Positions 8,344-63,495 of a stretch of 64,000 bases of DNA are shown here, piece by piece. Each line of letters opens with the position of its first letter. Position 1 is the first letter of the stretch. The stretch spans positions 27,749 through 91,748 of the forward strand of contig CAZSGJ010000002.1 of the NCBI GenBank assembly GCA_964606305.1, given 5' to 3'. The notes under the pieces are model-generated. The model was not told where the DNA came from. It was given only the letters and a program-made list of their open reading frames with translations, and made no database searches. The DNA is from an uncultured Armatimonadia bacterium (GTDB lineage Bacteria; Armatimonadota; Armatimonadia; Armatimonadales; Armatimonadaceae). A program made the position numbers and the translations under genes.

Positions 8344-9630
8344 CTAAATGGATGTGTCTGACTCACTGGCCCATATCGCAACGGTCGCAAGAGCAGCCGC
8401 GCAGCGCTTATAGTCGACAGGACTTATCTTGTCGACGGTATCGGCATGCGTATGATGAACATTCCAGTATTCCGTCGTATCGGTATTGAGACCGGCTGTC
8501 GGGTAGCCAAGGGCACCGCTCGGGGCGATATCCGCTCCCCCTCCTCCACTTGTGACTGCGATACCAAGAGTATCCGTCAGCAGCGGTGATAACTCAGCCT
8601 GAATCCCTCGAAACACTGGGTCACTTTTGGCCGTGATTCCCACAGCCAATGGATTTCCAACGCCACTGTCAGACTCGACAAGAAGCCGGTGGCGCTCGCG
8701 GAGCGACTTCACTCGAGCCGCATACTCAATTCCACCACGCGTACCGTTTTCTTCGTTCACCCAAAATGCCACACGGATTGTCCGGCGTGGTCTCCATCCA
8801 CCATGCTTGATGTGCATTAGTGCAGTCCACGCTGCACAACACCCGCCGGCATCATCATTAGCGCCTTGTCCAACATCCCAGCTGTCAATATGCCCACCGA
8901 GGGCGACCACCTCATCAGGGTATTGGGAGCCTCGTATATCTGCCCAGATGTTAGAGGAGCGTCTGTCAGGACGAAAATGTGCTGCCATCTTAAGCTGAAC
9001 AACAGGACTATCACCGGCATCATAGAGACGCTGAATGAGTTCCGCTCCTTCTATAGACACTGCACACGCCGGTATCTTCTCAATACCATCTTCATAAACC
9101 ATTGCACCGGTGTGCGGGGTCTGGAGTGATTTGGGTCCGACACTTCTTACGATGGATGCAATCGCGCCGACTCTGGCAGCTGCGGCTGCTCCTTTTGCCC
9201 GATACTGCACCGTCGCGCCATAAGTCGTAAATGGGACGTTAAAGAGCACGACCTTACCGCGAACCAAATCAGCTTTAGCGGCAAGATCCGTGAAATCCTT
9301 TACAGGCACAACGGGCGCGACTATTCCGCTTCTCCCCGTCCCAATACTTCCTCCAAGACCAAGTATCGCAAGTGATGTCTTTCTCGGAGACAAAAGTTCG
9401 AGGGACTCCTGCCCCCTTTCCCACCTTGGTACCAGTACTGGTTGGCGTGTTACAGAATCAAAGCCATCTCTGCGCAGCGTCGCTTCTAACCAGTCGAGCG
9501 AGCGTTCGAGTGAGTCTGAGCCACTAAGCCGGTGGCCGTACCGGTCGCACAACGTGATCAGGCGGTCCAATGCTTTGGCATCACCCAAAATCCTGGACTG
9601 GACATCAAGAACCCTCTGCGCAATGTTCAT
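8344..9630 (-). CDS. M28-family metallopeptidase (aminopeptidase) with PA-like insert
   Basis: Has M28 zinc-ligand motifs (GGHIDSWDVGQGANDDAGG; WVNEENG; HHTHADT). Confidence 0.8.
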   Translation of the reverse strand: MNIAQRVLDVQSRILGDAKALDRLITLCDRYGHRLSGSDSLERSLDWLEATLRRDGFDSVTRQPVLVPRWERGQESLELLSPRKTSLAILGLGGSIGTGRSGIVAPVVPVKDFTDLAAKADLVRGKVVLFNVPFTTYGATVQYRAKGAAAAARVGAIASIVRSVGPKSLQTPHTGAMVYEDGIEKIPACAVSIEGAELIQRLYDAGDSPVVQLKMAAHFRPDRRSSNIWADIRGSQYPDEVVALGGHIDSWDVGQGANDDAGGCCAAWTALMHIKHGGWRPRRTIRVAFWVNEENGTRGGIEYAARVKSLRERHRLLVESDSGVGNPLAVGITAKSDPVFRGIQAELSPLLTDTLGIAVTSGGGGADIAPSGALGYPTAGLNTDTTEYWNVHHTHADTVDKISPVDYKRCAAALATVAIWASESDTSI

Positions 9631-9762
9631 GTCTGTATTGTAAGAGACGACGATGACGTTGTCGAAATCTACACGTAGCCTGCCTGAGTACCCGAGCTGC
9701 TAACAACTGCTGCTTTACACGGCTAACGCGCGTTTACGAGGTGTTTACGATGAGTCGTTCAT

Positions 9763-10941
9763 TCACGGAAGGATTGTCGATGGGCTAAGTTTTTGTGATG
9801 AAACGATATGCCGTTCAATCGCTTCCAAGTCAGGATCGATGCCCCAACCATCACCCTTAGGTATCGTCATCAGACCATCCTCAAGGCGAAGAGCCCCTCC
9901 TCCGAGGTGATCCCGTAGAGGATCCCTCAGACCATCCCGCCTTAGTAGTGGCGGCGGAGCCTCCGTTCGGCCTGGTTGTCGGATATCTGTTGCGAGGAAG
10001 TGCATCGCAGCAGCAACTCCTACCGCGTTACCGGTTGCGATCGGTGAAACATTGATACCGTGAGCGGATGCGAGTGCGCGTATACGGAGTGCTTCTGTCG
10101 GTCCGCCGCACCAGGCTAGGTGGACATGCGCTACATGCACACATCGTGTCCGTAACAGATTTTCAAATTCGGTACGTGTTTGGAGGAGACGACCTGCCGC
10201 GAGAGGCATGCGGATTGCCGCAGCCAAATGTGTATATAGCTCGGGCATGTCTGCCGGAACCGGGTCTTCAAAAACTGAGAAGCGGTTTTCTTCCAGGAGT
10301 CGTCCAATGGCAATGGCTTCCGGGAGGTCGTAGGCGCCGTGTGCTTCTGCGGTGAATGCAGTTTCGGGTAATGCATTCCTGAGGCCTGATATGAGTGCTT
10401 TATCCTGCGTCAGGTTGCGCCCTAGTTGAATGGCGATGGCCCGGTATCCATTGTCGACAAGCGCTCTGGCTTCGTCAACAAGACGCGGGATCCGGTCAAC
10501 TTCAGGACCATCGATGGAATACAAGCCAATGGCAGCACACGGGAGCTTTTCGCGATGGATACCGCCGAACAAGTCACCCGCCCGAATTCCAAGTGTGCGT
10601 GCGCGAAGGTCCCAAATGGCCATATCGAGGCCGCTGATTGCTCCCATCATCGCACCTCGACGTCCATGAGGCTGGGCAGCAAGCCACATGGCCTGCCACA
10701 ATCGTTCATGGTTCAGCGCACATTGACCAAAGAGAATTGGTGCCAACCTTTCTTTGATCAGCGCCTCTGCAGCCTCAGGGAAACCACCACATTCACCCCA
10801 TCCAGTACGCCCATCGGCAGTGTCAACCGCCACGAGTAACGATTCTCGTCTGTACGTTTTCCCGTGGGGTGTACCGATGGGTTCCCAAAGTCTGGCCGCC
10901 AGACGGTAGGTACGAACCCCTGCGATAGGCGCATCCACCAC
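9763..10941 (-). CDS. Enolase-superfamily (mandelate racemase/muconate lactonizing) enzyme, probable sugar-acid dehydratase
   Basis: Has an MR/MLE-like N-terminal capping region (GRTGWGECGG) and a barrel domain. Its GTG start overlaps the eda stop by 1 nt. Confidence 0.7.
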   Translation of the reverse strand: MVDAPIAGVRTYRLAARLWEPIGTPHGKTYRRESLLVAVDTADGRTGWGECGGFPEAAEALIKERLAPILFGQCALNHERLWQAMWLAAQPHGRRGAMMGAISGLDMAIWDLRARTLGIRAGDLFGGIHREKLPCAAIGLYSIDGPEVDRIPRLVDEARALVDNGYRAIAIQLGRNLTQDKALISGLRNALPETAFTAEAHGAYDLPEAIAIGRLLEENRFSVFEDPVPADMPELYTHLAAAIRMPLAAGRLLQTRTEFENLLRTRCVHVAHVHLAWCGGPTEALRIRALASAHGINVSPIATGNAVGVAAAMHFLATDIRQPGRTEAPPPLLRRDGLRDPLRDHLGGGALRLEDGLMTIPKGDGWGIDPDLEAIERHIVSSQKLSPSTILP

Positions 10942-32486: not shown

Positions 32487-33290
32487 ATGCAAAATACCCG
32501 CAAGCAATCAGCATTTACACTGATCGAGCTTCTTGTCGTAATCGCAATCATCGCGATCCTCGCTGCAATCCTCTTCCCAGTTTTTGCACAGGCACGTGAA
32601 AAGGCCCGTGGCATCTCCTGTGTCAGCAACGCTAAGCAAATTGGCACCGCTGTCATGATGTATGCTCAGGACTACGATGAAACCATCATCCCATGGTTCA
32701 CCCGCTCCGGACTGCCACGCACATCCCAGCGTGCTGACCTCAACTCCTGGGTCATCAATCTACAGCCGTACATCAAGAACGGTGCACCTCGTGTTCTGAA
32801 CACAACCGCACTTGACTTCCAGAATGTTGAAGCACAGGGAATGTTCAAGTGCCCATCATTCAACCCGACCACGTTCCGCGCAGCTGCAAACATGCCAGAC
32901 TGCGATGGTCCTGGTGCTCTTGATGCTTGGATTCCAGCACGTCTGTATCACGCAAACTACGGAATTGGCTTTGGAGCTATCTTCGGATCCTGCACTCAGG
33001 CTGATCCATATTCGGCATTTGGCGGCAGCCGTGAAACAGCAATCATGTCTTTGGCCGCTGTTCAGCGCCCAGCGGAGACGGTTGAAGTTACCGATGGATT
33101 CACCGGTATCATCCAGTCCGGTGGATTTGGAACAACCATGGGCTGTGAAGCAGCGAATAGCCACACCGGTGGTGGAACGCACATCTTCCTTGATGGCCAT
33201 GCCAAGTGGATTGCCCGCAACTCCGAGCGGTACATCCAACAGGGTCCTGATGGATGCTGGTTCAAGACGTACTACACAGCTGACCGCTAG
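32487..33290 (+). CDS. DUF1559 (H-X9-DG) protein with prepilin-type N-terminal methylation domain
   Basis: N-terminus [35 protein letters not shown] and C-terminal [16 protein letters not shown] (H-X9-DG). Position -1 is Ala rather than Gly. Confidence 0.9.
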
Positions 33291-35345: not shown

Positions 35346-35999
35346 TCAAACTCCGATACTTAGCACTAATGCTTCTACATCAAACCCAGCTGCCACCAGC
35401 GCATCCGCCGCGGCTCGCATCGTCGCTCCGGTTGTTCCGATGTCATCGACCAATAAACACTTTCGATACATCTGAGCATTCCGGTGACCAACATTGACGT
35501 TGAATACAGTATCAGCATATCGATTGCTTCGGTCCGTCATTGACAATGATTGCTGCGACTTGCCCCCCAGCCTCGTAAACGCTCTCGTCTGCAATAGTGG
35601 AAGATTTGCCACCTTTGAGATCTCGCATGCAATGAGGCGTGCCGGATTGTAGCCACGTTTCCACGTTCGCCATGGATCTCCCGGCATTGGAATGACCACA
35701 TCAGTCCCTTCCATCCACGCTGCATCTCTGATGCGATTCACAACCGCTGAGGTAAACCGGACGAGTCTCCATGGCTGATCTTCATACTTTGCCTTATGAA
35801 GCACTTCCTTTACAGCGCCGGAATACTCCGTAAGAGCGCGTAAACCGCTGAATGAGCGTAAGTCATGCGATTCCGAAAACGGGAACAGCGTCACCTGGTC
35901 TCGGCATGCCGCGCACAACCACTGATTGCCCCATTTGTCACAACAGGAACACTGACAAGGAAACATCAACTCTGCCAAGGTGTCCATTGTGAACCGCAT
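35346..35999 (-). CDS. comF: ComF-family phosphoribosyltransferase-fold protein (ComFC type)
   Basis: N-terminal zinc-finger-like Cys cluster (CQCSCC...CAAC) and a C-terminal PRTase motif (LLVDDIGTTGAT). Confidence 0.85.
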   Translation of the reverse strand: MRFTMDTLAELMFPCQCSCCDKWGNQWLCAACRDQVTLFPFSESHDLRSFSGLRALTEYSGAVKEVLHKAKYEDQPWRLVRFTSAVVNRIRDAAWMEGTDVVIPMPGDPWRTWKRGYNPARLIACEISKVANLPLLQTRAFTRLGGKSQQSLSMTDRSNRYADTVFNVNVGHRNAQMYRKCLLVDDIGTTGATMRAAADALVAAGFDVEALVLSIGV

Positions 36000-36002
36000 T
36001 CT

Positions 36003-37697
36003 TTACTCCAATCTCGAAAACCTGTCCTGTAAGCCGGAATCGTTGACCATTGCCTCGGCAAATTGAATCCGTGCGCGAATTTCTCTGTTGTCCGGTATCC
36101 ACTTCAACACTTTGCGATATCCAAAGAGAGCACCAGAAAAGTCTTTGGCATCGTAGCGTGCATTGGCATCCTGCAACGTTCGTTCGAGATTTATTTTGGA
36201 ATGTAACTCCTGGATATCGTTGCTGACAAGCCCTGCTTTTCCCGCATCAACAGCAAGCATTGCAGCCAAGTCGAGATTCCCAGACGCTATATGTCTTGTC
36301 ATCTCGTGCAGGACCCGCATTGCAACACTGTCTGCATATGCTTTGGTATCGCGTGCAATTTCCGGTCCGACGACTACAAGCTCTGATATTCTCTGAATAC
36401 CAGATAGTTTGTTCAGTTGTTCCACGATGTCATCCGAATTTGCCATCAATGCACGATGTAGCTGCGTTGTGGTTGCATCGACAATAGCACGTGAGAACAC
36501 AGCGGGCAGTAATGTCTTTCCGGGAGAGCTTGTCACTTGCTTTAGAAAGTCAAGGAATTCTGGAAAGGCAACGGCACTTAATGCAACTATGAGCTCACAA
36601 GCTGCCAATGATGCCGATTCTGAAAAAGCCACGGTTTGGTTCTTCACCCACTTGCCACAGAAGTCGCTTATTGCTCGCGGGCTGTCTCCAGCGGACACGA
36701 ATTTTCTGAATGACTCGAGAGCAGCAACCTCAGAGACGGCATTCTTCGCAACCGAATCAATCTCGAAGCGAAAAATAGAGCCATCCCGGGTACTAACACC
36801 AAGATAGTTTCCACTCGGAGACAAAGAGATTCCGGATGGGCATCCGGTATCGATTAGAAGTTCCCAGTCCCGTAGAGCATCATTGTCCCCCACAAAAACA
36901 ATCTTGCCCGATCTGGCATCGACAGCTATCGGAATGACTACCGTCTCTCCACCAGGCAAAACTGAGATTCCGCATGGCTCGCCATCAATATCAGCGACGA
37001 GTCGGTATTCCCCCGTTGGGTCAATCACTTTGGCCTTCATTTGATTGTCAACCATGTCACGGCCAACGATTGCCATTGTGGACTCATTGTCGATGCACAG
37101 GCTACTTGGAAATAGTCCTGAGTGTACGGTTTGTACGACATCACGCGTATCCGTCAAAATGTAAACTTCCCCAGCCGTGCCAGCGACTGCGATGAACTTT
37201 CCATTCGGCGAAATGGCAACGAGGTCCGTGGGATGCTGAAGATCCTTAGTCCAGATCAGGCGATTACTGCTGTCACCCAATCCAACGGCATACCCATTCA
37301 TCAAGAGGTCACTCGCGACATATGCAAAGCGACCATTGTCGGCAAGAGCGATGGAGTGATAAGCCAGTCTACGATCTGTTAGAAACCTGGTCTTGCGGCC
37401 TTGATTAAAAATGTAGAAATCGTCATCCGTAATCCCGATACCTATCGTCCCATCGGGGCAAAGCTGTAAATTGCGCAGAGTTTCCACTGAGACTGTCTCA
37501 ACGATGGACGGTCTGTCAGCCGAACAATGCTGCGTAAAGTGTAGAACGCGGACCTCATAGTCATCGGGTACGGCAACAGTAAGAGAGCCATCATCCCCGA
37601 TAGCATTTGGATGGATAGCGTACGTACCCCGCGCTTTGCGCTGCGAAAGTAGACGGATGTCGGCGATAGTTGTCACAAGCAGGCATTTTACCCTCAC
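36003..37697 (-). CDS. Hypothetical cytoplasmic protein: N-terminal beta-propeller-like repeats plus a C-terminal helical/TPR-like region
   Basis: 564 aa with no signal peptide. Repeated beta-strand blades are visible (SPNGKFIAVAGTAGEVYIL, SLSPSGNYLGVSTRDGSIFRF). The C-terminus is TPR-like (YDAKDFSGALFGYRKVLKWIPDN). The stop lies 3 nt before the comF start. Confidence 0.6.
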   Translation of the reverse strand: MRVKCLLVTTIADIRLLSQRKARGTYAIHPNAIGDDGSLTVAVPDDYEVRVLHFTQHCSADRPSIVETVSVETLRNLQLCPDGTIGIGITDDDFYIFNQGRKTRFLTDRRLAYHSIALADNGRFAYVASDLLMNGYAVGLGDSSNRLIWTKDLQHPTDLVAISPNGKFIAVAGTAGEVYILTDTRDVVQTVHSGLFPSSLCIDNESTMAIVGRDMVDNQMKAKVIDPTGEYRLVADIDGEPCGISVLPGGETVVIPIAVDARSGKIVFVGDNDALRDWELLIDTGCPSGISLSPSGNYLGVSTRDGSIFRFEIDSVAKNAVSEVAALESFRKFVSAGDSPRAISDFCGKWVKNQTVAFSESASLAACELIVALSAVAFPEFLDFLKQVTSSPGKTLLPAVFSRAIVDATTTQLHRALMANSDDIVEQLNKLSGIQRISELVVVGPEIARDTKAYADSVAMRVLHEMTRHIASGNLDLAAMLAVDAGKAGLVSNDIQELHSKINLERTLQDANARYDAKDFSGALFGYRKVLKWIPDNREIRARIQFAEAMVNDSGLQDRFSRLE

Positions 37698-37733: not shown

Positions 37734-40700
37734 ATGTTGCTAGCCGTAAATCGCTTCGCCAAGATGGCAGTCATGTTTGGATCGTTATTAGTGACCGGTG
37801 TCCTTGCTGCAGCACCTGAGTCGGCAGTACGGTCAACCCGCCCGGGCAAACCCCAGCCAGTATCCTTCGCACGAAGCATTCGCGCTATCCTTTCTGATAA
37901 CTGCTACAAGTGCCACGGTCCGGATGCAAAAACCCGTGCAGCGGGACTGCGTCTTGACACATTTGAAGGAGCAACGAAGAAACTGGCAAGCGGCAGGCAG
38001 GCAGTCATCCCACATGATCAAGTCGCTTCAGCGGTCATTGAGAGAATACTATTACCTGAGAGCGATCCGCGCCATATGCCACCGGCTACAACGCAGCGGC
38101 GTATCAAGCCATCACAGCTCCAGGACCTTCGGCGATGGATTGATGAAGGGGCCACGTATGAAAACCACTGGGCATTTACCCCTGCCTCCCGGCCAAGTGT
38201 GCCTAAAGGGACCATTAATCCTGTTGACTACTTTATAAACAAGGCACTTGTAGAGCAAACCATCAAACCGCTTCCTGTAGCCGACAAACTGACGCTGCTT
38301 CGCAGAGTGACATTTGACCTCACAGGCTTACCACCAAGCATTGAGGATATCGAAGCATTTACAGCAGATACAAAAGCCGGAGCATATGAGCGGGTTGTGG
38401 ACAATCTCCTAAATCGTCCCGCGTATGGTGAACGGATGGCACTGATGTGGCTGGATTTGGCCCGTTATGCAGATACGCATGGTTATCACATCGATAGCCA
38501 CAGGGATATGTTTCGCTGGCGAGACTGGGTCATCCGAGCGTTCAACAGCAATATGCCCTATGACAGGTTTCTGACAGAGCAGCTGGCTGGGGACTTGCTT
38601 CCGAACCCGACGACAGACCAGCTGGTTGCGACGGGATTCAATCGAAATCACCCGATTAACTTTGAAGGCGGAGCTATTCCCGAAGAGTACCAAACAGCCT
38701 ATGTCGCTGATCGCGTTGACACAACGGCGACCGTGACGATGGGCCTCACGTTACGCTGCGCGCAATGCCATGACCACAAATATGATCCTATAGCGATGCA
38801 GGATTACTACCGGTTTTATGCCCTCTTCAATAATATCGACGAAGAGGGCCTCGATGGGATGCGGGGAAATGCCAAGCCATTTATTCAGGCACCGTCTCCA
38901 GCTGAGCAATCCCACCTTGATGCGCTATCAAACCGGATAGCAGTCCTTACCAACGAGTGCAAGTCATTATCGTCAGGCATTCTGGCCGGATTGGGAAACG
39001 TTAATCGTGGACCGATAAAGCAGGATGAATATCGCTGGGTATTGGGAGAAAGAGCCTATAGCGTAGGTAGCAAGTCCAAAGATGGTCAGGCAGGAAGCAT
39101 GACGACATCAGGTGATGGCCCGGAGCGCATGCCAGCGATGCGTTTGGGCACTGGAACAGCTCCAATCATCACGAATGCTCCTGTTGTGAGTCTCAATCGT
39201 CCATTTACGATTGCATTTTGGTATTGGTCAGAAAACGGGGGTGGAATACCCGTCTCTCAAATGGATGTTGGAAACAACCTAAAGGGTTGGGATTTCTATC
39301 TGGATGGTGGCTCGCCTCTTCTGCACTTCATTAACAGCTGGCCAACAAATGCACTGCGCTTCCGATCTACATTCAGAGCGCCGATACGAAAATGGGTCCA
39401 TACCGTCATTACGAATAATGGCAGTGGAACCTATGACGGCATTACCCTCTATCTGGATGGAATTAATATCCCGATATCACCGGACCACAATACTCTTTCC
39501 AGCCCATTTTCGGTTGACACTCCAATCCATCTCGGCGATCGTGGTAACGGTTCTACATTTTCGGGATTGGTGTCCGACCTTTGTATAAAAGGCAGCATTG
39601 CAGCAGAAGACGATGTGTCAATCCATCGTTCAACGGGTCTGGCTTACATCACCTCGATGGCGCAGAAACCGGATGCATCCAGTGACCTTAGATTCTGTGT
39701 CGCCAGCACATTGGCAACAGACTCCATTGATGCGTTCCGTACACGCCGAAACCTGATAGAGCAACGACAAAAGCTGGCGGCGTCTATTCCGACGTCAATG
39801 GTGATGAAGGAACGCCAGGTTCCTCGCAAAACGTTTGTATTGGACCGTGGTCAGTATGACAAGCCAACTACGGAAGTTCAACCGGGCGTGCCATCCTTCG
39901 GTGCACTCTCAAACATGCCACAGATCAGGTCACGCCTCGGGCTAGCCCGATGGTTGACATCGGGTGAGCATCCCCTAACCAGCCGCGTTGCAGTCAATCG
40001 CCTTTGGCAGATCGCGTTTGGCACGGGAATCGTCCGAACATCAGAAAACTTTGGCGTTCAAGGAGAATGGCCATCCCATCCTGAGCTGCTTGATTGGCTC
40101 GCTACCGAATATGTGCGTTCGGGGTGGAACACCAAGGCAATGCTGCGATTGTTGGTAACATCCGATGCCTACAAACGGTCAGCGGCTCCTACAAAGTCAT
40201 TGAAAGACCGTGACCCGGAAAACATCTGGCATGCATATGCAAGCAGGCCGCGTCTGCAAGCGGAGTTTGTCCGTGACTTGGCATTGGCATCATCCGGCTT
40301 ACTCGCTACGGATATAGGTGGACCGAGTGTCAAAACCTATCAACCAGCAGGACTCTGGGAGGAGCTCTCATTCAAGGGCGACTTTACCGCTCAATACTAC
40401 GTTCAGGATCATGGTGAAAAGCTGTATCGTCGTTCGATGTACACATTTTGGAAACGGACTGTCCCTCCACCATCACTCCAGACCTTTGATGCTCCAGAGC
40501 GCGAGTTTTGCATCGTTCGACGCCCAGCAACAAATACACCGCTTCAGGCCTTGGTTCTTCTGAATGACCCTACTTATACCGAGGCATCCAGAGTACTGGC
40601 TGAACGTGTCTTGAGTACAACGCTGGGCGACAAAGATCGCATGCATCAGGTGTTTCTACGATTGGTCTCAAGACGAGCATCTCAGATTGAAATGCAACGC

Positions 40701-40880
40701 TTTACGCGTTTACTAGAAGCTCAGCGCAAGCGCTTTATGTCCGAACCTAAAGCAGCGGGTGATCTCTTGATGGTGGGAGAACATCGCCGGATTACCGAGT
40801 TTCCTGTAGCAGAAGTTGCCGCCTGGACAGTAGTCGCCTTGAGTGTGATGAACCTCGATGAAGCGATAACGCGTCCTTAA
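37734..40880 (+). CDS. PSCyt / DUF1549 / LamG / DUF1553 multidomain protein (planctomycete cytochrome-c domain family)
   Basis: Signal peptide, then a CxxCH heme motif (CYKCHGPD) and a DUF1549-like region (DYFINK..., TFDLTGLPP). A second C-x2-CH motif follows (CAQCHDHKYDP), then a central LamG-like module and a DUF1553-like C-terminus. The start may be Met at 37764. Confidence 0.8.
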   Translation: MLLAVNRFAKMAVMFGSLLVTGVLAAAPESAVRSTRPGKPQPVSFARSIRAILSDNCYKCHGPDAKTRAAGLRLDTFEGATKKLASGRQAVIPHDQVASAVIERILLPESDPRHMPPATTQRRIKPSQLQDLRRWIDEGATYENHWAFTPASRPSVPKGTINPVDYFINKALVEQTIKPLPVADKLTLLRRVTFDLTGLPPSIEDIEAFTADTKAGAYERVVDNLLNRPAYGERMALMWLDLARYADTHGYHIDSHRDMFRWRDWVIRAFNSNMPYDRFLTEQLAGDLLPNPTTDQLVATGFNRNHPINFEGGAIPEEYQTAYVADRVDTTATVTMGLTLRCAQCHDHKYDPIAMQDYYRFYALFNNIDEEGLDGMRGNAKPFIQAPSPAEQSHLDALSNRIAVLTNECKSLSSGILAGLGNVNRGPIKQDEYRWVLGERAYSVGSKSKDGQAGSMTTSGDGPERMPAMRLGTGTAPIITNAPVVSLNRPFTIAFWYWSENGGGIPVSQMDVGNNLKGWDFYLDGGSPLLHFINSWPTNALRFRSTFRAPIRKWVHTVITNNGSGTYDGITLYLDGINIPISPDHNTLSSPFSVDTPIHLGDRGNGSTFSGLVSDLCIKGSIAAEDDVSIHRSTGLAYITSMAQKPDASSDLRFCVASTLATDSIDAFRTRRNLIEQRQKLAASIPTSMVMKERQVPRKTFVLDRGQYDKPTTEVQPGVPSFGALSNMPQIRSRLGLARWLTSGEHPLTSRVAVNRLWQIAFGTGIVRTSENFGVQGEWPSHPELLDWLATEYVRSGWNTKAMLRLLVTSDAYKRSAAPTKSLKDRDPENIWHAYASRPRLQAEFVRDLALASSGLLATDIGGPSVKTYQPAGLWEELSFKGDFTAQYYVQDHGEKLYRRSMYTFWKRTVPPPSLQTFDAPEREFCIVRRPATNTPLQALVLLNDPTYTEASRVLAERVLSTTLGDKDRMHQVFLRLVSRRASQIEMQRFTRLLEAQRKRFMSEPKAAGDLLMVGEHRRITEFPVAEVAAWTVVALSVMNLDEAITRP

Positions 40881-43037: not shown

Positions 43038-43610
43038 ATGAAGAATATGCGATGGATACAACCACCCACAGTCAAGCCCGGTGACTCTCCACGTCCCGGT
43101 CTCATCTCCTATCGGCGCCTAACCTGGGCTGACTTTGAGCCTCGGAATGTAAGTTCCGGTGCATCCGCGCAGACAAGCGCAGTTCTGCATGCCACCTACA
43201 AATGGGGGTGGATGAGCCGCGGGAACCAGTTTACAGGGTTTATCTCCGATGTTCGTATTGGAGCTTGGTTTGATCCCGCAGGATCGTGGCGCAAACCCGA
43301 TGTCCGAAGCGACAATTCCTGGTTGCTCGAACATGAACAACGGCACTTTGATCTATGCGAAATCGGTGCAAGAATGCTTCGAGATCAGGTTATAGGTATT
43401 CGTCAGGAGATCCGGGGAAACAGTGATTCAGAGATCAAAAACCAGATTCAAGCAATTATGAATCCTCTTGTGTCTTCCTTTATTGATGACGTCAAGCGGC
43501 AGCAGGAACGCTACGACAAAGAGTCAAACCATTCACGTAACCGTCGAGCCCAGCAGGAGTGGAACAATCGAATCCAACGTGACTTAGACCGGCTCGCACC
43601 TATCGCCTGA
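43038..43610 (+). CDS. DUF922-family putative zinc metalloprotease
   Basis: 190 aa with the LLEHEQRHFD motif characteristic of DUF922. Confidence 0.65.
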   Translation: MKNMRWIQPPTVKPGDSPRPGLISYRRLTWADFEPRNVSSGASAQTSAVLHATYKWGWMSRGNQFTGFISDVRIGAWFDPAGSWRKPDVRSDNSWLLEHEQRHFDLCEIGARMLRDQVIGIRQEIRGNSDSEIKNQIQAIMNPLVSSFIDDVKRQQERYDKESNHSRNRRAQQEWNNRIQRDLDRLAPIA

Positions 43611-55440: not shown

Positions 55441-56595
55441 TCAAAGTGAGTCAACAAAGCGACCTATCCGGACAATCGCCTCTTCGAGAAGTTTCGGGGC
55501 TGTGGCATAACAACAGCGCACATGCCCCATACCTCCCGGACCAAAGACATCTCCGGGAACCACTAGGACCCGTTCTTCATGCAGGAGTCGCTCCGCAAAC
55601 GTTGATGCATCCAATCCAGTGTGTTCAATGTTTGGAAAAGCATAGAATGCACCACCAGGAAGTTCACACGGAATACCCACACGGTTTAGGCCAGCAACAA
55701 ACATCCTGCGCCGTCTATCATAATCTTCCACCATGTCGGCGACATCTCGCTCACCATGTCTGATAGCTTCCAACGCTGCAATCTGCGATGTAATGGGAGC
55801 GCATAGCATTGTGTACTGGTGGATTTTCATCATCGCTTCGATAATCGGTGCCGGTGCGCAAACATACCCGACACGCCACCCAGTCATCGCATAAGCTTTG
55901 CTAAACCCATTTAGTAAAATCGTGCGTTCTTTGGCACCATCCAGTCCGGCCACACAAACGTGGGGCGCATCGTATGACAGGCGGTCGTAGATTTCATCGG
56001 TGAGGATATAGAGATCGTGCGACGCAGCAACATCGACAACATCCTGAAGCTCTCTTCTGCCCATCGTTGCACCCGTCGGATTCGTGGGATAGCTGAGCAG
56101 GATGGCCTTTGTGTTGGGCGTAATGAAACGGGAAAGCTGGTCAGCACGGACCTTGAAGCCATCCGCGGCACGTGTGGGAACAGGAACGGGCGTACCACCA
56201 GCAAACATCACACATGGCGCATACGACACATAGCACGGTTCCGGTACGAGGACTTCATCGCCAGGATTCAATATCGCCCGGAATGCCGCATCGAGTCCCT
56301 CAGAGACACCAACCGTGATGAGGACTTCATTTCGATGGTTGTATTCAATGCCGTAACGGCTGGAGACGAGCTGGACGATCGCATCCCGAAGCTCTAATAG
56401 TCCATAGTTACTGGTGTAGGTCGTTCTACCCTGCTCAAGGCTGTGTATTGCAGCCTCGCGGACTCTCCAAGGTGTTATGAAATCAGGTTCACCTACACCC
56501 AGCGAGATGACATCATCCATCTCCGCAACAAGGTCAAAAAACTTTCGTATGCCGGATGCTGGCAGATTAGTTACTGTTTTTGAGAGGCTTTTCAC
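55441..56595 (-). CDS. PLP-dependent class I/II aminotransferase (aspartate/aromatic type)
   Basis: The PLP-lysine motif (SFSKAYAMTGWRVGY) and N.TG and P.NPTG motifs are present. Confidence 0.88.
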   Translation of the reverse strand: MKSLSKTVTNLPASGIRKFFDLVAEMDDVISLGVGEPDFITPWRVREAAIHSLEQGRTTYTSNYGLLELRDAIVQLVSSRYGIEYNHRNEVLITVGVSEGLDAAFRAILNPGDEVLVPEPCYVSYAPCVMFAGGTPVPVPTRAADGFKVRADQLSRFITPNTKAILLSYPTNPTGATMGRRELQDVVDVAASHDLYILTDEIYDRLSYDAPHVCVAGLDGAKERTILLNGFSKAYAMTGWRVGYVCAPAPIIEAMMKIHQYTMLCAPITSQIAALEAIRHGERDVADMVEDYDRRRRMFVAGLNRVGIPCELPGGAFYAFPNIEHTGLDASTFAERLLHEERVLVVPGDVFGPGGMGHVRCCYATAPKLLEEAIVRIGRFVDSL

Positions 56596-57095
56596 GGCGT
56601 AACCGCCAGACGTTCGTCGTTAGCCGGTCTCGCAAAGGCATCCCCTTCCTGCTTGTAGCACTTAAGGACGAAGCGGGTGGCCGTGCCGCGAACGCCATCG
56701 ATAGTTGCCAAACGTTCTGCAACAAAGCTGGCGACATCCTGCATCGTTTGCCCACGCACAACCACGCGGAGATCCTGCGATCCCGTAACAAGATGCACGC
56801 TTACCACCTCAGGAAACTGGCGTATGCGGTCTGCAATCCGATCGTAACCGTATCCGCGTTCAGGCTGCACCGCCAAGTCGATAAAGCTCTCCACGGGAGG
56901 TGATGTCACCGCTTCCCACTTTATTCTCGCACGGTAACCTGCGATGACTCCAATCGACTCGAGGCGGACACGCATCCGTTGTACAGTTTCTACATCAGAT
57001 CCAAGTACGGTGGCCAATTGATCATCCGTTATGCGAGCATTGGACTCAATTGTTTTGAGAAGTTGTTCTTCTGATTCGGAAATGTTCACGAGCAC
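56592..57095 (-). CDS. Lrp/AsnC-family transcriptional regulator
   Basis: N-terminal HTH region and a C-terminal AsnC-type fold (VVSVHLVTGSQDLRVVVR). Overlaps the aminotransferase start by 4 nt. Confidence 0.8.
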   Translation of the reverse strand: MLVNISESEEQLLKTIESNARITDDQLATVLGSDVETVQRMRVRLESIGVIAGYRARIKWEAVTSPPVESFIDLAVQPERGYGYDRIADRIRQFPEVVSVHLVTGSQDLRVVVRGQTMQDVASFVAERLATIDGVRGTATRFVLKCYKQEGDAFARPANDERLAVTP

Positions 57096-57098
57096 GGT

Positions 57099-58454
57099 TT
57101 ACAACCCCAACTCATCCATCAAGGTTGGGAGGAACTTTGTCGAAATCGCATTAGTTCGGTACCGTTCATCGGCAAGGATTGTCTTCAGGAACGATACGTT
57201 TGTAGGCAGTCCATCAACAGAAACTTCTGACAATGCACATTCCATTCGTACGATTGCTTCGTCTCGGGATGGCGCCCAAACAATCAACTTAGCAAGGTTT
57301 GAATCGTAATACGGAGGAACCGTGTAGCCGGAGTAACACTGCGAATCAATACGGATACCGAGTCCGCCAGGCATGATGAAGGATGACATTTTGCCAGCAC
57401 TCGGAGCAAATCCCTTGTCTGGATTCTGTGCAGTAACGCGACACTCAATTGAGTGACCATTCCAATTGACATCGTCCTGGGAAATAGTAAGTTGGTCACC
57501 TGCAGCAATCCGAATCTGCCACTTTACGAGGTCAATGCCAGTTACAGCCTCGGTAACAGGGTGTTCTACCTGAATGCGGGTGTTCATTTCCATGAAGTAG
57601 AAGTCACCATCTGGCGTGTAAATGAACTCCACAGTTCCGGCATTTGCGTACCCAACCGCTTTCGCGGCACGAACAGCAGCCTCGCCCATTGCAGTACGCT
57701 GATGAGGCGTGAGCGAAACACTGGGCGCTTCCTCGACAACCTTTTGGTGGCGCACAGTTTGCACCGTACATTCCCGCTCCCCCAAATGAATTACATTGCC
57801 ATGTTCATCTGCGAGGATCTGCACCTCTATATGACGCATGTCCGTGATGTACTTCTCAAGATAAACGCCCGCATTGCCGAACGCAGCCTCCGCTTCTGCC
57901 TGAGCCACTTTCAACACTTTGAGAAGTTCTTCTTCAGACCATGCAACGCGGATTCCCCGACCACCACCGCCTGCTGTTGCCTTTACGACAACCGGATAAC
58001 CAATCGCTCCGGCGATACGACGTGCATCTTCATCCGATGTCAACAACCCATCTGAACCAGGAACTGTGGGGACGCCAGCAGCGAGTGCAGTTTCACGGGC
58101 GGTTGCCTTGTCTCCCATTTGTTCAATGGCGGATACAGGAGGACCAATGAACTTTACGCCAATGGCATTGCAGATCTCGGCGAAACTAGCCACTTCGGAC
58201 AGAAATCCATAGCCCGGATGAACAGCATCTGCACCTGTGTTGCGCGCTGCAGCCACGATATTCGGAATGTTGAGGTACGAATCTTTACTGGCACTGGGTC
58301 CTACGCAAACAGCTTCATCCGCGAGCCTCACATGTAATGAGTCTGCATCGGCATCGGAGTGGATGGCAACCGTTGCCACACCGAGCTCCCGACATGCCCT
58401 GATGACACGCACAGCTATTTCGCCACGGTTGGCAATGAGAACTTTCTTAAACAT
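57099..58454 (-). CDS. accC: Acetyl-CoA carboxylase biotin carboxylase subunit
   Basis: MFKKVLIANRGEIAVRVIRAC N-terminus, an ATP-grasp fold (GGGGRGIR) and MNTRIQVEHPVTE. Confidence 0.97.
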   Translation of the reverse strand: MFKKVLIANRGEIAVRVIRACRELGVATVAIHSDADADSLHVRLADEAVCVGPSASKDSYLNIPNIVAAARNTGADAVHPGYGFLSEVASFAEICNAIGVKFIGPPVSAIEQMGDKATARETALAAGVPTVPGSDGLLTSDEDARRIAGAIGYPVVVKATAGGGGRGIRVAWSEEELLKVLKVAQAEAEAAFGNAGVYLEKYITDMRHIEVQILADEHGNVIHLGERECTVQTVRHQKVVEEAPSVSLTPHQRTAMGEAAVRAAKAVGYANAGTVEFIYTPDGDFYFMEMNTRIQVEHPVTEAVTGIDLVKWQIRIAAGDQLTISQDDVNWNGHSIECRVTAQNPDKGFAPSAGKMSSFIMPGGLGIRIDSQCYSGYTVPPYYDSNLAKLIVWAPSRDEAIVRMECALSEVSVDGLPTNVSFLKTILADERYRTNAISTKFLPTLMDELGL

Positions 58455-58474: not shown

Positions 58475-58843
58475 TTAAGGGTTGGAGGTCGAAATGAATC
58501 CAGCAGATTGGCTTACAACACCTGTAGCAGGATCATAGTTGAGGGGAGTCTTCGTGTTTGGATCAACAATCATTTGCTCTGTCACCCCGTATGGCTTCAA
58601 GTCGCTCAAGCTTGGCGGTAACTGATCATCGTGATCCATTTTGTACATCGTAATCGCTTGCTGTATTTGCGAAATGTACTCATTACCTGCAGTGATTCTT
58701 GCACGCTGCGTCGGTGTCGGTACTTTCCGACCGGCTTTGTCAACGCCACCGCCGCCTGTTACGTAACGAACAACAAAAACAGCAAGCACAGCAATTATGG
58801 CAATCGTAAGCAAAGTCCCGACGAGTGAAAATCCGCGTCTCAA
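58475..58843 (-). CDS. GspG-like pseudopilin with an atypical prepilin N-terminus (Gly at +5)
   Basis: N-terminus MRRG|FSLVGTLLTIAIIAVLAV. The C-terminal part resembles major T2SS pseudopilins (ISQIQQAITMYKMDHDDQLPPSLSDL...DPNTKTPLNYDP). Overlaps the upstream BCCP-like stop by 4 nt. Confidence 0.7.
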   Translation of the reverse strand: MRRGFSLVGTLLTIAIIAVLAVFVVRYVTGGGGVDKAGRKVPTPTQRARITAGNEYISQIQQAITMYKMDHDDQLPPSLSDLKPYGVTEQMIVDPNTKTPLNYDPATGVVSQSAGFISTSNP

Positions 58844-59259
58844 CTGGATTTACTCTCAAGAAGCGCAAACAAAATCTGACCATACTCCACAGGTTGACCA
58901 GGCTCCACGTGAACTGCGGTAATAACACCGGAAACCGGAGAAACAATCGCATTGGTGATGCCGACCGTATCTACAGCACCAAGCGCCCGAGTACCGTCAA
59001 CGATGTCACCAACTACAAATGCCGGCTCAGCGGGCACAAACACGCCCACACTTTGTGCGGTAACGGAATGGGTCGCCGTCTTGTCCGCTGCCGATGTAAT
59101 GCTCTCAGAATCCACAGGAACATCAACATCAGAAATAGCAATACTGCGCCGCAAGCGAACATGGATGCCATCGGCGATGACTTCAAGCTCTGTCATTTGT
59201 GGTTGCGATGACATCGCTGCCGCATAGGCTTCAATCAAACTCGTATCCATCGTTACCAC
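58840..59259 (-). CDS. Biotin carboxyl carrier protein (BCCP) homologue lacking the biotinyl-lysine
   Basis: BCCP-like N-terminus (MTELEVIADGIHVRLRR) and biotinyl-domain core (VGDIV..., SGVITAVHVEPGQPVEYGQ). The EAMKM box reads VDTVGIT, with codon GGC at the Lys position. The start is GTG 59259 or ATG 59250. Confidence 0.8.
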   Translation of the reverse strand: MVTMDTSLIEAYAAAMSSQPQMTELEVIADGIHVRLRRSIAISDVDVPVDSESITSAADKTATHSVTAQSVGVFVPAEPAFVVGDIVDGTRALGAVDTVGITNAIVSPVSGVITAVHVEPGQPVEYGQILFALLESKSS

Positions 59260-60362
59260 TTCTTTTCAAAAATAGCCCATTCAAGTGCATGGATAATCTT
59301 TGCAATGACCATGATCGAACCGGCAATGACAAACAACCAAATGGCGGATTCGTTCGGCTTAGCAACCTTTATCGCAGTCGTAGGATCGCCCGTAAAAGCG
59401 AATCTCCGAACTGTCATCTCGATGGCATTCATCACATTACCAACGGAATCACGCATCTCATATCCAAGGAAAGCACACAAGGCAATAGACAGCGTCATCA
59501 CCACTGGCAAGAGAATCTTGTACTTCTCGCGTTGATGCTCATTATAGATGATGCAGTTTCTGCAGCGTTCGACTTTCTGAGCATCCGAGAGAAAGACAAC
59601 CTTTTTCGGAGTGCTATTATTCGCGTAATTTTGCGACTCACTCGGAGCCATTTCTAGGACCGTCCCGCGGGACTTTTTCGTCGCAATATTTACGATTTCT
59701 TCATCGCAGTAGCAACCACGCCGTCGTTGCCAACATGTGTCCTTGGCTTTGAATATTGGACAGTGTGTTCGGACATAATCCCGGCAGTAAGCACCTTCCC
59801 AGCACTTACCGATGAGCGACATTCTGACCGGTCGGTCTTCCCTCTTGGCATCGTTACCAAACTGTAAGTCGGATGCAACCTTGCTTTGGCGCTCAACGGA
59901 ACGTATCACGCGAACGATCAGGTCCCGGACAACGAGTATGAGTGCAATCAGTCCAGGCGCCATTGCAGCGACTGGAAACTTCGCCACGGTCATTCTCATA
60001 GCAACCGAGGGCTCGCCACCCATACTGGCGAATGCCATCGGTACTCCAAAGTAGAGAGCTCCGGCCAATATGGCCATCAGGTAGCCTGCGGTTTCCTCGA
60101 ACCAGAATATGACCAGAGAGCAAATAGAGCCAACAACAGCCGCTGCAAGCATCGCATTTCCAGCAAGGTTAATATTCCCAAGCATCGTAACTTGACGCGT
60201 TCTGTCCCAAGATGCAAAGTCTCCCAAACCGAAAAACACGCCATAAAGTAAGTATGCCGTGGCGATTCCAAAAACGATGATGCAAATGTGAAACACATTG
60301 CTGGCAAAGGCCAGCATCACCGGTGTGCTTGCTCCAGTGCGACTATACTGCTCCTGGTCCAT
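59253..60362 (-). CDS. Polytopic membrane protein with a central Cys-rich module
   Basis: 369 aa with about 4 TM segments, then CWEGAYC-x7-C-x8-C-x6-CYC...CRNC (8 Cys), then 2 more TM segments. I recognised no family. The stop overlaps or abuts the BCCP-like start. Confidence 0.65.
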   Translation of the reverse strand: MDQEQYSRTGASTPVMLAFASNVFHICIIVFGIATAYLLYGVFFGLGDFASWDRTRQVTMLGNINLAGNAMLAAAVVGSICSLVIFWFEETAGYLMAILAGALYFGVPMAFASMGGEPSVAMRMTVAKFPVAAMAPGLIALILVVRDLIVRVIRSVERQSKVASDLQFGNDAKREDRPVRMSLIGKCWEGAYCRDYVRTHCPIFKAKDTCWQRRRGCYCDEEIVNIATKKSRGTVLEMAPSESQNYANNSTPKKVVFLSDAQKVERCRNCIIYNEHQREKYKILLPVVMTLSIALCAFLGYEMRDSVGNVMNAIEMTVRRFAFTGDPTTAIKVAKPNESAIWLFVIAGSIMVIAKIIHALEWAIFEKKW

Positions 60363-60369
60363 ATTCTTC

Positions 60370-60927
60370 CTACTTTACGCGTTCAAGGTAAGTATCAGTG
60401 CGTGTATCGACGCGCACTTTATCTCCTTGATTAACGAAAAATGGAACACGGATGACAGCCCCTGTCTCTAATGTGGCAGGTTTGCTTCCTCCGGATGCCG
60501 TATCACCCTTAAAGCCAGGATCGGTTTCAGTGATTACCAGCTCCATAAAGTCGGGAGCCGTGACCTGCACAATCTCTTCCTTAAAGATAATGACCTGAAC
60601 ATCGGTGTTTTCCTTCAGGTACTTTTCCTTTTCACCGATCAACTTACGATCCACAGTTACCTGTTCAAAGGTCTCCATGTCCATCAGGTGAAAGTCTGAA
60701 CCTTCGGAATAGAGGAACTGCATCACCTTACGGTCGAGGCGCGCTTGTTCAATCTTTTCACCTGCGTTCCAAGTACGATCAATAGTCGCACCCGTTCGCA
60801 GATTCTTCATTTTGGAACGTACAAACGCTCCGCCTTTACCTGGCTTGACATGTTGAAACTCAACAATGGTGTAGATGTCATTGTTGAACAAGATCGACAA
60901 GCCGTTTCGAAAATCTCCAGTATCCAT
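60370..60927 (-). CDS. efp: Elongation factor P
   Basis: 185 aa with FRNGL, HVKPGKGGAFVR.K.KN and VPFFV motifs. Confidence 0.97.
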   Translation of the reverse strand: MDTGDFRNGLSILFNNDIYTIVEFQHVKPGKGGAFVRSKMKNLRTGATIDRTWNAGEKIEQARLDRKVMQFLYSEGSDFHLMDMETFEQVTVDRKLIGEKEKYLKENTDVQVIIFKEEIVQVTAPDFMELVITETDPGFKGDTASGGSKPATLETGAVIRVPFFVNQGDKVRVDTRTDTYLERVK

Positions 60928-63150: not shown

Positions 63151-63495
63151 TTACCCACCGAACGGAAAGGTGTATCTGGCATCCCGAAGCATGAACGACC
63201 GACGACTCGCGAGCCCCTTCTTATTGCCAAGAAACGCATCAAGCCAATAACTCACGACGTCCGGGTCAACATCCGAGCCATCTGGACTGAGAATGGCCAG
63301 CTCGTACGACCACACCTTTGTGCGTTCATCGCACTCGAGGGTCAGTTCGAGCCAAATGCCGTTGTGAAACCGTCGATAGCGTTCTCTGTCTATAACTCCA
63401 TACTTCTGCAATGCGAACAACGTCAGGGGTTCATTGTTCGCAAGTGTCCACATCTCCTGCACGACACGCATATCGCGCTCAGCGATACCGCTCAC
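63151..63495 (-). CDS. Hypothetical small protein (114 aa)
   Basis: The ORF start overlaps the upstream aminopeptidase stop by 4 nt. I recognised no family. Confidence 0.45.

Follow-up and report, generated by a model that had tools for sequence, protein, structure and literature searches.

The stretch of DNA analysed here, called the window, comprises 64,000 nucleotides from an uncultured Armatimonadia bacterium (GenBank assembly GCA_964606305.1, contig CAZSGJ010000002.1, positions 27,749 to 91,748). It carries a tightly packed gene cluster in which the position of accB, the gene for BCCP (biotin carboxyl carrier protein), is occupied by a BCCP homologue that has no biotin-accepting lysine. 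BCCPs are defined by this biotinyl-lysine, and a bacterial accB gene beside accC is routinely annotated as the carrier of acetyl-CoA carboxylase (ACC). We refer to the Lys-less AccB/BCCP as BCCP* and to its two membrane-protein gene neighbours as X and Y. The genes are arranged as efp-7 nt-X-2 nt-BCCP*-(4-nt overlap)-Y-20 nt-accC, and the cluster contains the following features:

60370..60927, minus strand: efp, elongation factor P (TIGR00038, 255 bits), the first gene of the tight cluster

59253..60362, minus strand: X, a 369-aa membrane protein with six transmembrane segments predicted from hydropathy; its stop lies 2 nt before the BCCP* start

58840..59250, minus strand: BCCP*, the Lys-less AccB/BCCP orthologue, 136 aa, ATG at 59250; the mechanical open reading frame (ORF) reaches a GTG at 59259

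59149..59250, minus strand: N-terminal domain of BCCP*, aa 1-34, helix and beta-hairpin, MTELEVIADGIHVRLRR; aligns with residues 21-54 of 4hr7_B

59074..59148, minus strand: variable linker of BCCP*, aa 35-59, predicted local distance difference test (pLDDT) score 59-64, unconserved in alignments A1 and A2

58843..59073, minus strand: C-terminal biotinyl-type beta-barrel of BCCP*, aa 60-136, without the 'thumb'; Foldseek TM score on target length 0.81-0.89 to 1bdo, 5gua and 2evb

58951..58971, minus strand: hairpin tip of BCCP*, DTVGITN in place of EAMKMMN, a motif invariant in 49 of 49 homologues

58475..58843, minus strand: Y, a 122-aa pseudopilin-like protein (MRRGFSLV and one transmembrane segment); the TTG with which it starts overlaps the stop of BCCP* (TTGA)

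57099..58454, minus strand: accC, biotin carboxylase (BC), 451 aa (TIGR00514, 692 bits; cut-off 626.5)

The first-pass annotation had placed the gene at 58840..59259, and this ORF is present on the minus strand, with a GTG start and 139 amino acids. However, translation almost certainly begins at the ATG in position 59250, giving 136 amino acids. This codon lies 2 nt past the TAA stop of the upstream gene, and the same start has been called on six independent contigs. Read on the DNA, the minus strand at 58951-58971 is GAT ACG GTC GGC ATC ACC AAT and encodes DTVGITN, as had been reported. The glycine codon GGC (58960-58962) stands at the site of the biotinyl-lysine and differs from AAA and AAG at all three positions. 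A MAFFT alignment reproduced the proposed pairing: DTVGI falls under EAMKM of the Escherichia coli BCCP without a gap over the 31 residues originally compared, and the flanking blocks ELEV..VRLRR and GQPVEYGQ align as well. BCCP* thus does not have the E-(A/V)-M-K-(M/L) motif with the biotin-accepting lysine at the hairpin tip. As had also been stated, the hairpin contains no other lysine; the only two lysines of the protein are K57 in the variable linker and K134 in the C-terminal tail. A relocated acceptor could be ruled out, since no alignment column contains more than 11% lysine among the Lys-less sequences, and so could the MYKM sequence in Y as a substitute, since relatives have arginine or glutamine there. 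BCCP* is therefore predicted not to be biotinylatable, whether at the usual position or at a conserved site elsewhere in the protein.

In its overall architecture, BCCP* is a true BCCP homologue, as initially proposed, and Pfam, TIGR00531, profile and fold evidence agree on this. The Pfam model Biotin_lipoyl (PF00364) matches residues 66-133 with 29.4 bits (gathering threshold 22.1), and the profile of family alignment A3 (122 sequences) retrieves full-length E. coli BCCP (4hr7_B, residues 21-176) with E=2.8e-34 over profile positions 2-134. The match to TIGR00531 (E=3.8e-11, 43.7 bits) is below the equivalog cut-off of 115.2 bits, as are those of a Lys-bearing relative, P0206 (74.3 bits), and of the protein from Armatimonas rosea (52.7 bits). 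Since P0206 remains under the cut-off in spite of its lysine, we attribute the low score to divergence of the lineage. The AlphaFold2 model was computed from alignment A3 (pLDDT 89.6); the shallow alignment A2 gave a pLDDT of 58.5 and was not used. In the model, a helix and beta-hairpin span aa 6-37 and a barrel spans aa 63-135, joined by a linker of low confidence. Foldseek searches of the PDB with this model returned 5gua, 2evb, 1bdo and 4hr7 with TM scores on target length of 0.8-0.9 and a probability of 1.00; the top matches are biotinyl domains of BCCPs, with the flattened beta-barrel and the hairpin tip. The 'thumb', which ACC-type BCCPs typically carry as an insertion between strands 2 and 3, is missing: a gap of 4-5 residues lies opposite E. 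coli TPSPDAKA, and the same gap is present in Lys-bearing members of the family (P0206). In the N-terminal domain (pLDDT 87-95), the model places a helix at residues 6-18 and strands at 24-29 and 32-37 in the 139-aa numbering, and this part appears from its sequence to be the counterpart of the BC-binding and oligomerisation region of E. coli BCCP (residues 1-30). The first-pass annotation had also considered assignment to an unrelated lipoyl- or biotinyl-fold family. The searches gave no such assignment: GcvH (TIGR00527) scored E=0.21, the sucB and HlyD/RND models E values of 1e-3 to 3e-2, far below their cut-offs, and PF13437 20.5 bits under a threshold of 22.2. A lipoyl carrier or an HlyD/RND adaptor can thus be ruled out, as BCCP was the best match in every search, and the homology to BCCP is far beyond chance.

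The loss of the lysine is neither an error nor a sign of decay. At least six independent assemblies, four from SRA runs and two from JGI freshwater metagenomes, contain the identical 136-aa protein, and an alignment of orthologues, suggested earlier as a check, revealed that all of the 49 database homologues, with identities of 68-99%, have kept DTVGIT. Together with the three-base codon difference, this excludes a sequencing error at the Lys codon, which had already been thought improbable. Selection was assessed by domain, from the ratio of nonsynonymous to synonymous differences (pN/pS) in 55 pairs of close orthologues, because the rate ratio dN/dS against most orthologues suffers from saturation of synonymous sites. 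The values are 0.058 for the N-terminal domain, 0.64 for the linker and 0.156 for the C-terminal domain; for the neighbours accC, efp and X, dN/dS is about 0.02-0.03. Such a pattern is to be expected of a working BCCP-type protein, and the low values in the two folded domains as compared to the linker contradict the earlier suggestion of a degenerate carrier, or of a pseudogene under relaxed selection.

The Lys-less state is widespread. When 1.84 billion cluster representatives were searched exhaustively with a profile, 3086 of them matched at E<=1e-3. Among the best 150 of these 3086 (representatives at 50% identity), the carrier position is occupied by arginine in 50, glycine in 48 and lysine in 41 sequences, with histidine, alanine, threonine, serine and asparagine in two each; most of these 150 sequences thus lack the lysine. 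In a scan of species-representative genomes, the pattern GQPVEYGQ drew mostly canonical BCCPs, and no close relative of the window family was listed. Of 80 loci among the matches listed, 21 have no lysine: five in the Armatimonadota (EAMRL, ETMRI, EVMRL, ESMGM, EALTL), ten in the Eremiobacterota/Vulcanimicrobiota (E[AT]LGIRNP) and six in the Chloroflexota (ESLNV, EALNV, EAMRM). The cultured type strain of A. rosea (GCA_014202505.1) has histidine in place of the lysine (hairpin IDTMHLLSDC), and its protein is named acetyl-CoA carboxylase biotin carboxyl carrier protein in NCBI and UniRef. A neighbour-joining tree with Fitch counting gave about 11 changes between Lys and non-Lys, a number that comes from a short, noisy alignment and a weak tree; together with the R, G, H, N, T, A and S variants it is a hint that the lysine was lost several times. 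The first-pass annotation knew of no Lys-less BCCP in the accB slot of a bacterium. For the literature this stands: in the full texts searched, which cover few subscription journals, no Lys-less bacterial BCCP is described, and only papers on the plant BADC proteins were found. For the sequences it does not, as such genes occur in three phyla, including the genome of A. rosea.

The gene order identifies BCCP* as the positional orthologue of accB. As described before, accC lies just downstream: it starts 386 nt away (58454) on the same strand, with only the gene for Y in between, and this co-oriented adjacency is kept in relatives. AccC is, judging from its sequence, a bona fide biotin carboxylase whose best PDB matches are a plant BC (9eb7), the Staphylococcus aureus enzyme (2vpq) and BC2 of Chloroflexus aurantiacus (8hz5). 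The order efp-X-BCCP*-Y-accC recurs in the loci L081-84, L001, L004 and, in A. rosea, L086, at identities from 30% to 99%; in A. rosea even the upstream part is as in the window (M29 peptidase - SLH protein - efp - X - BCCP* - Y - accC). A homologue of BCCP* with 77% identity is present in a metagenome-assembled genome (MAG) of the Armatimonadota. The linkage of efp to accB extends to L016, L085 and the Chloroflexota loci, in addition to L001, L004, L081 and L086. In L085, a Lys-bearing Armatimonadetes MAG, the order is efp-accB(K)-Y-accC-nusB-folD. Because this Lys-bearing gene has the same efp-accB-Y-accC arrangement, BCCP* is best regarded as the accB orthologue itself, and the term paralogue, used for one of the initial possibilities, is not borne out.

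The protein X has no match in Pfam or NCBIfam, and its named homologues are all 'hypothetical proteins' of the Armatimonadota. Alignment A4 revealed a loop of about 130 amino acids with eight invariant cysteines (CWEGxYCR..HCPIF..CW..RGCYC ... CRNCxIYNEH), a pattern which suggests a metal or Fe-S site. Members of the family are encoded in the window (59253-60362, minus strand), in L001 (5228-6547), L004 (8679-9932) and L086 (4625-5764) and in L088-L167. When metagenomes were scanned with an X profile, the next gene in the 80 loci obtained was almost always accB-like where enough sequence follows, with glycine at the carrier position in 30, lysine in 11 and arginine in 4 of these genes. A specific association of X with Lys-less accB is thus ruled out by the at least 11 X-linked accB genes that keep the lysine. 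The pairing of X with accB is older and wider than the loss of the lysine; therefore X cannot explain this loss, and within the Armatimonadota it stands as a conserved companion of accB. Two of the X-linked loci, L159 and L160 (4390-5538 and 8658-9011), carry a pair of Lys-less BCCP-like genes (TVEVLGIANEV) on a single contig at a distance of 3.5 kb, with a gene for a 1097-aa tricorn-protease-like protein between the copies; the first copy has no adjoining accC or Y.

The protein Y gives weak matches to N_methyl and TIGR02532, and the N_methyl match is also seen with the A. rosea homologue. Its gene stands between accB and accC in L001, L004, L015, L081, L085 and L086 (coordinates about 10430-10809 in L085, 6185-6586 in L086 and 1939-2346 in L015). 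It is wedged there throughout the Armatimonadota, even in a MAG with a Lys-bearing accB and without X. Distant versions of Y have a cysteine-containing C-terminus, ...CP...Y.YD...G.V.C..PGHE(R/Q)(F/Y). AccC has a peculiarity of its own: around amino acids 225-240 it reads ERECTVQTVRHQKVVEEAP where plant BC has ERDCSVQR-RNQK, i. e. a one-residue insertion and the loss of an arginine before the conserved HQK. The form QTVRHQK is also found in L001, L004 and A. rosea and QTPRHQK in L085, whereas L015 has the usual QRRHQK. Two further genes follow accC:

56592-57095, minus strand: AsnC/Lrp-type regulator (Pfam), 3 nt after accC

55441-56595, minus strand: class I/II aminotransferase (Pfam), overlapping the AsnC/Lrp gene by 4 nt

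This accC-AsnC/Lrp-aminotransferase order is shared by L081-L084 and not by A. rosea, and the two genes are no more than possible members of the operon.

The efp-accB-accC neighbourhood is common in bacteria, and one of the known proteins closest to BCCP* is the E. coli AccB (TIGR00531; PDB 4HR7, 1BDO). Both proteins have a helix and hairpin at the N-terminus, then a flexible linker, and a flattened beta-barrel at the C-terminus, both contain the GQPVE motif and match end to end in the profile comparison, and both are encoded upstream of accC in an efp-accB-accC neighbourhood. BCCP* differs by DTVGI instead of EAMKM and hence by the absence of the biotinyl-Lys, by the lack of the thumb and by its score below the TIGR00531 cut-off, and the operon differs by the intercalated membrane-protein genes X and Y. 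Functionally, BCCP* appears by analogy to be closest to the plant BADCs, which are Lys-less BCCP homologues that bind BC and which were initially taken for inhibitors and are by now credited with a part in assembly as well (PMC12706156, PMC11889953). BADC1-3 likewise combine a folded biotinyl-type domain with disordered regions, do not contain a biotinylation motif and are under selection, and their target is the BC subcomplex, without a part in catalysis itself (PMC12706156, PMC11889953). BCCP* shares with them the lack of the biotinylation motif together with purifying selection, so that a BADC-like regulatory role is a reasonable analogy. In contrast, the BADCs are extra paralogues beside the catalytic BCCP1/2, whereas BCCP* is bacterial and resides in the ancestral accB slot.

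A third system, that of C. aurantiacus, indicates what a BCCP may do without its biotin. In BC1, a fused BC-BCCP that is the working carrier, the N-terminal hairpins of the BCCP part come together in an eight-stranded barrel, which makes BC a tetramer and increases its activity independently of biotin, and the K553A substitution abolishes biotinylation and binding to the carboxyltransferase (CT) (PMC11077971). Since the BC1 barrel acts independently of biotin, and in view of the K553A effects, a Lys-less AccB could organise BC but not deliver carboxybiotin to CT. The BC1/BC2 pair (PDB 8HZ4, 8HZ5) is an ACC system of the Terrabacteria, and it demonstrates that there are arrangements other than a standalone accB/accC pair; as Chloroflexus has a fused BC-BCCP, alternative carriers do exist in related phyla. 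Of the two, BC2 is the closer match to the AccC of the window, with 557 bits compared to 499 bits for BC1. The BCCP domain of BC1 contains EAMKM and is biotinylated, neither of which holds for BCCP*, and C. aurantiacus has nothing like X or Y; its standalone BCCP reportedly keeps the motif.

The reading towards which we lean, and which we regard as somewhat probable, is that BCCP* is a non-biotinylatable AccB orthologue that has been kept as a BC-binding scaffold or modulator, similar to the BADCs, and that biotin is carried by another protein. The accB orthologue of this uncultured freshwater bacterium of the Armatimonadota has lost the biotin-accepting lysine and yet stayed a functional protein, and it has kept the N-terminal helix and hairpin, i. 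e. the part with which a BCCP attaches to biotin carboxylase dimers and bridges them, besides a free linker and a folded biotinyl-type barrel. It shares a single packed operon, efp-X-BCCP*-Y-accC, with AccC, to which it may bind through its N-terminal domain as in 4HR7, and it may scaffold or modulate the BC subcomplex without itself being catalytic. As the barrel is predicted not to be biotinylatable, it could not shuttle CO2. The carboxyl group for malonyl-CoA would then be carried by a different biotinylated protein from another locus, such as a fused BC-BCCP subunit like BC1 of Chloroflexus.

Several observations weigh against this idea. All Lys-less subfamilies (EAMRL, ETLGIRNP, DTVGIT) show strong conservation of the hairpin, for which there is no obvious need in a mere scaffold, and the tip may therefore have a specific role. 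At some X-linked loci accC does not adjoin the Lys-less gene, and in the Chloroflexota the order is pepP-efp-BCCP*-xseA without accC. Finally, the postulated second carrier did not show up in the roughly 20-64 kb per genome that were covered: apart from BCCP*, the 64-kb window has neither a BCCP-like or biotinyl-domain ORF nor an MK box in a biotinyl context, and there is no second carrier within 10 kb on either side of the 21 Lys-less genome loci or within 4 kb on either side of the X loci. The window also contains no accA or accD and no birA. As to the gene orders, the Chloroflexota accC appears to have been excised from an ancestral pepP-efp-accB-accC-...-xseA cluster; L010 (1859-4222) and L051 (9139-11371), from Ktedonobacteraceae and Chloroflexia, are examples of an accB with asparagine for lysine between efp and xseA. 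The Eremiobacterota have the order folP-folB-folK-BCCP*-accC-nusB. On the Eremiobacterota chromosome OY970388.1 (L038, 9344-10246), one ORF of 300 amino acids runs from a FolK (HPPK)-like N-terminus into a Lys-less BCCP-like domain, whereas L002 has the two as separate genes (9506-9964 and 9971-10378); the joint ORF could be a real fusion, or result from the loss of a stop codon or from an assembly error.

The same putative BC-binding N-terminal domain and the same predicted lack of biotinylation would also fit a strict competitive inhibitor of the BADC type, with a paralogue elsewhere as the carrier and the ratio of the two proteins setting the flux into fatty acids. The plant BADCs are a precedent for such a protein (PMC12706156). 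Still, we consider this possibility unlikely: it is BCCP*, and not the hypothetical carrier, that holds the ancestral slot co-transcribed with accC, which suggests a constitutive, stoichiometric partnership rather than a tunable inhibitor. Moreover, even in plants the purely inhibitory model has been questioned in favour of a role in assembly (PMC12706156, PMC11889953), and no paralogue was observed.

Quite unlikely, in our opinion, is a more radical proposal, according to which BCCP* is the only AccB-type protein of the cell and forms, with AccC, X and Y, a membrane-associated complex without tethered biotin that might use free or otherwise bound biotin or might catalyse a BC-dependent reaction other than that of classical ACC. 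This proposal would account for the translational packing of X, BCCP*, Y and accC (2-nt gap, 4-nt overlap and 20-nt gap), for the maintenance of the cluster across the Armatimonadota including A. rosea at identities from 30% to 99%, for the fact that X is almost always followed by an accB-like gene, for the lack of a second carrier in any fetched locus and for the conservation of the hairpin in spite of the missing lysine. Free biotin is indeed carboxylated in vitro, by BC2 of C. aurantiacus and by BC1 devoid of its BCCP domain (PMC11077971). However, it is a very poor substrate with a Km of 11-17 mM (PMC11077971), and the lack of a second carrier applies to the about 20-64 kb seen per genome. 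Moreover, X occurs with a Lys-bearing accB in at least 11 loci and Y does so in L085; the X/Y context is therefore independent of the loss of the lysine. In turn, the Eremiobacterota and Chloroflexota, which have neither X nor Y, have lost the lysine as well.

The related and broader claim that in Armatimonadota like A. rosea, and perhaps in the Eremiobacterota, the Lys-less protein is the only AccB, and that AccC, BCCP*, X and Y constitute a membrane-anchored carboxylase module with a non-classical carrier, is in our view improbable. An artefact of sequencing or assembly, or a decaying gene specific to one lineage, has practically no probability left: in its favour there are only the 43.7 bits against a cut-off of 115.2 for the curated BCCP model, a shortfall shared by the Lys-bearing P0206 (74.3 bits), whereas the identical protein in six assemblies, the invariance of DTVGIT in 49 homologues down to 68% identity, the intact ORF with a pN/pS of 0.06-0.16 in the folded domains and the glycine codon that departs from the lysine codons at all three positions speak against it.

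The rest of the 64-kb window consists of housekeeping genes. At 37734-40880 (plus strand) it encodes a 1048-aa protein in the style of the Planctomycetes with PSCyt1, PSCyt2 (DUF1549), PSD1 (DUF1553) and Laminin_G_3 domains, and further genes of this style, located at 32487-33290 and 18-2234 (both plus strand), encode an N_methyl and DUF1559 protein and a type II/III secretin. Four ORFs of 114-564 amino acids have no meaningful Pfam match (36003-37697, 35346-35999 and 63151-63495 on the minus strand, 43038-43610 on the plus strand), and for the 564-aa ORF among them there is only a sub-threshold match to a beta-propeller.

The Lys-less accB is not unique to the window, and this raises the question which protein is the biotin carrier in the fatty-acid synthesis of such bacteria. 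If entire lineages do retain, in the accB slot and under purifying selection, an AccB that cannot be biotinylated, then annotations and metabolic reconstructions of Armatimonadota, Eremiobacterota and many Chloroflexota misassign the biotin carrier. To our knowledge, non-catalytic BCCP homologues have so far been known only as the BADCs of plants; if the reading of BCCP* as a scaffold or modulator is true, such proteins exist in bacteria, too, and the roles of scaffold and inhibitor could be dissected in the simple operon of a culturable organism, A. rosea. The constant pairing of accB with the membrane protein X and its eight cysteines points to a link between the BC subcomplex and the membrane. 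Should the module indeed turn out to be anchored in the membrane and to work with a non-classical carrier, it would represent a new organisation of the step that opens fatty-acid synthesis, or else a BC-dependent activity of a new kind.

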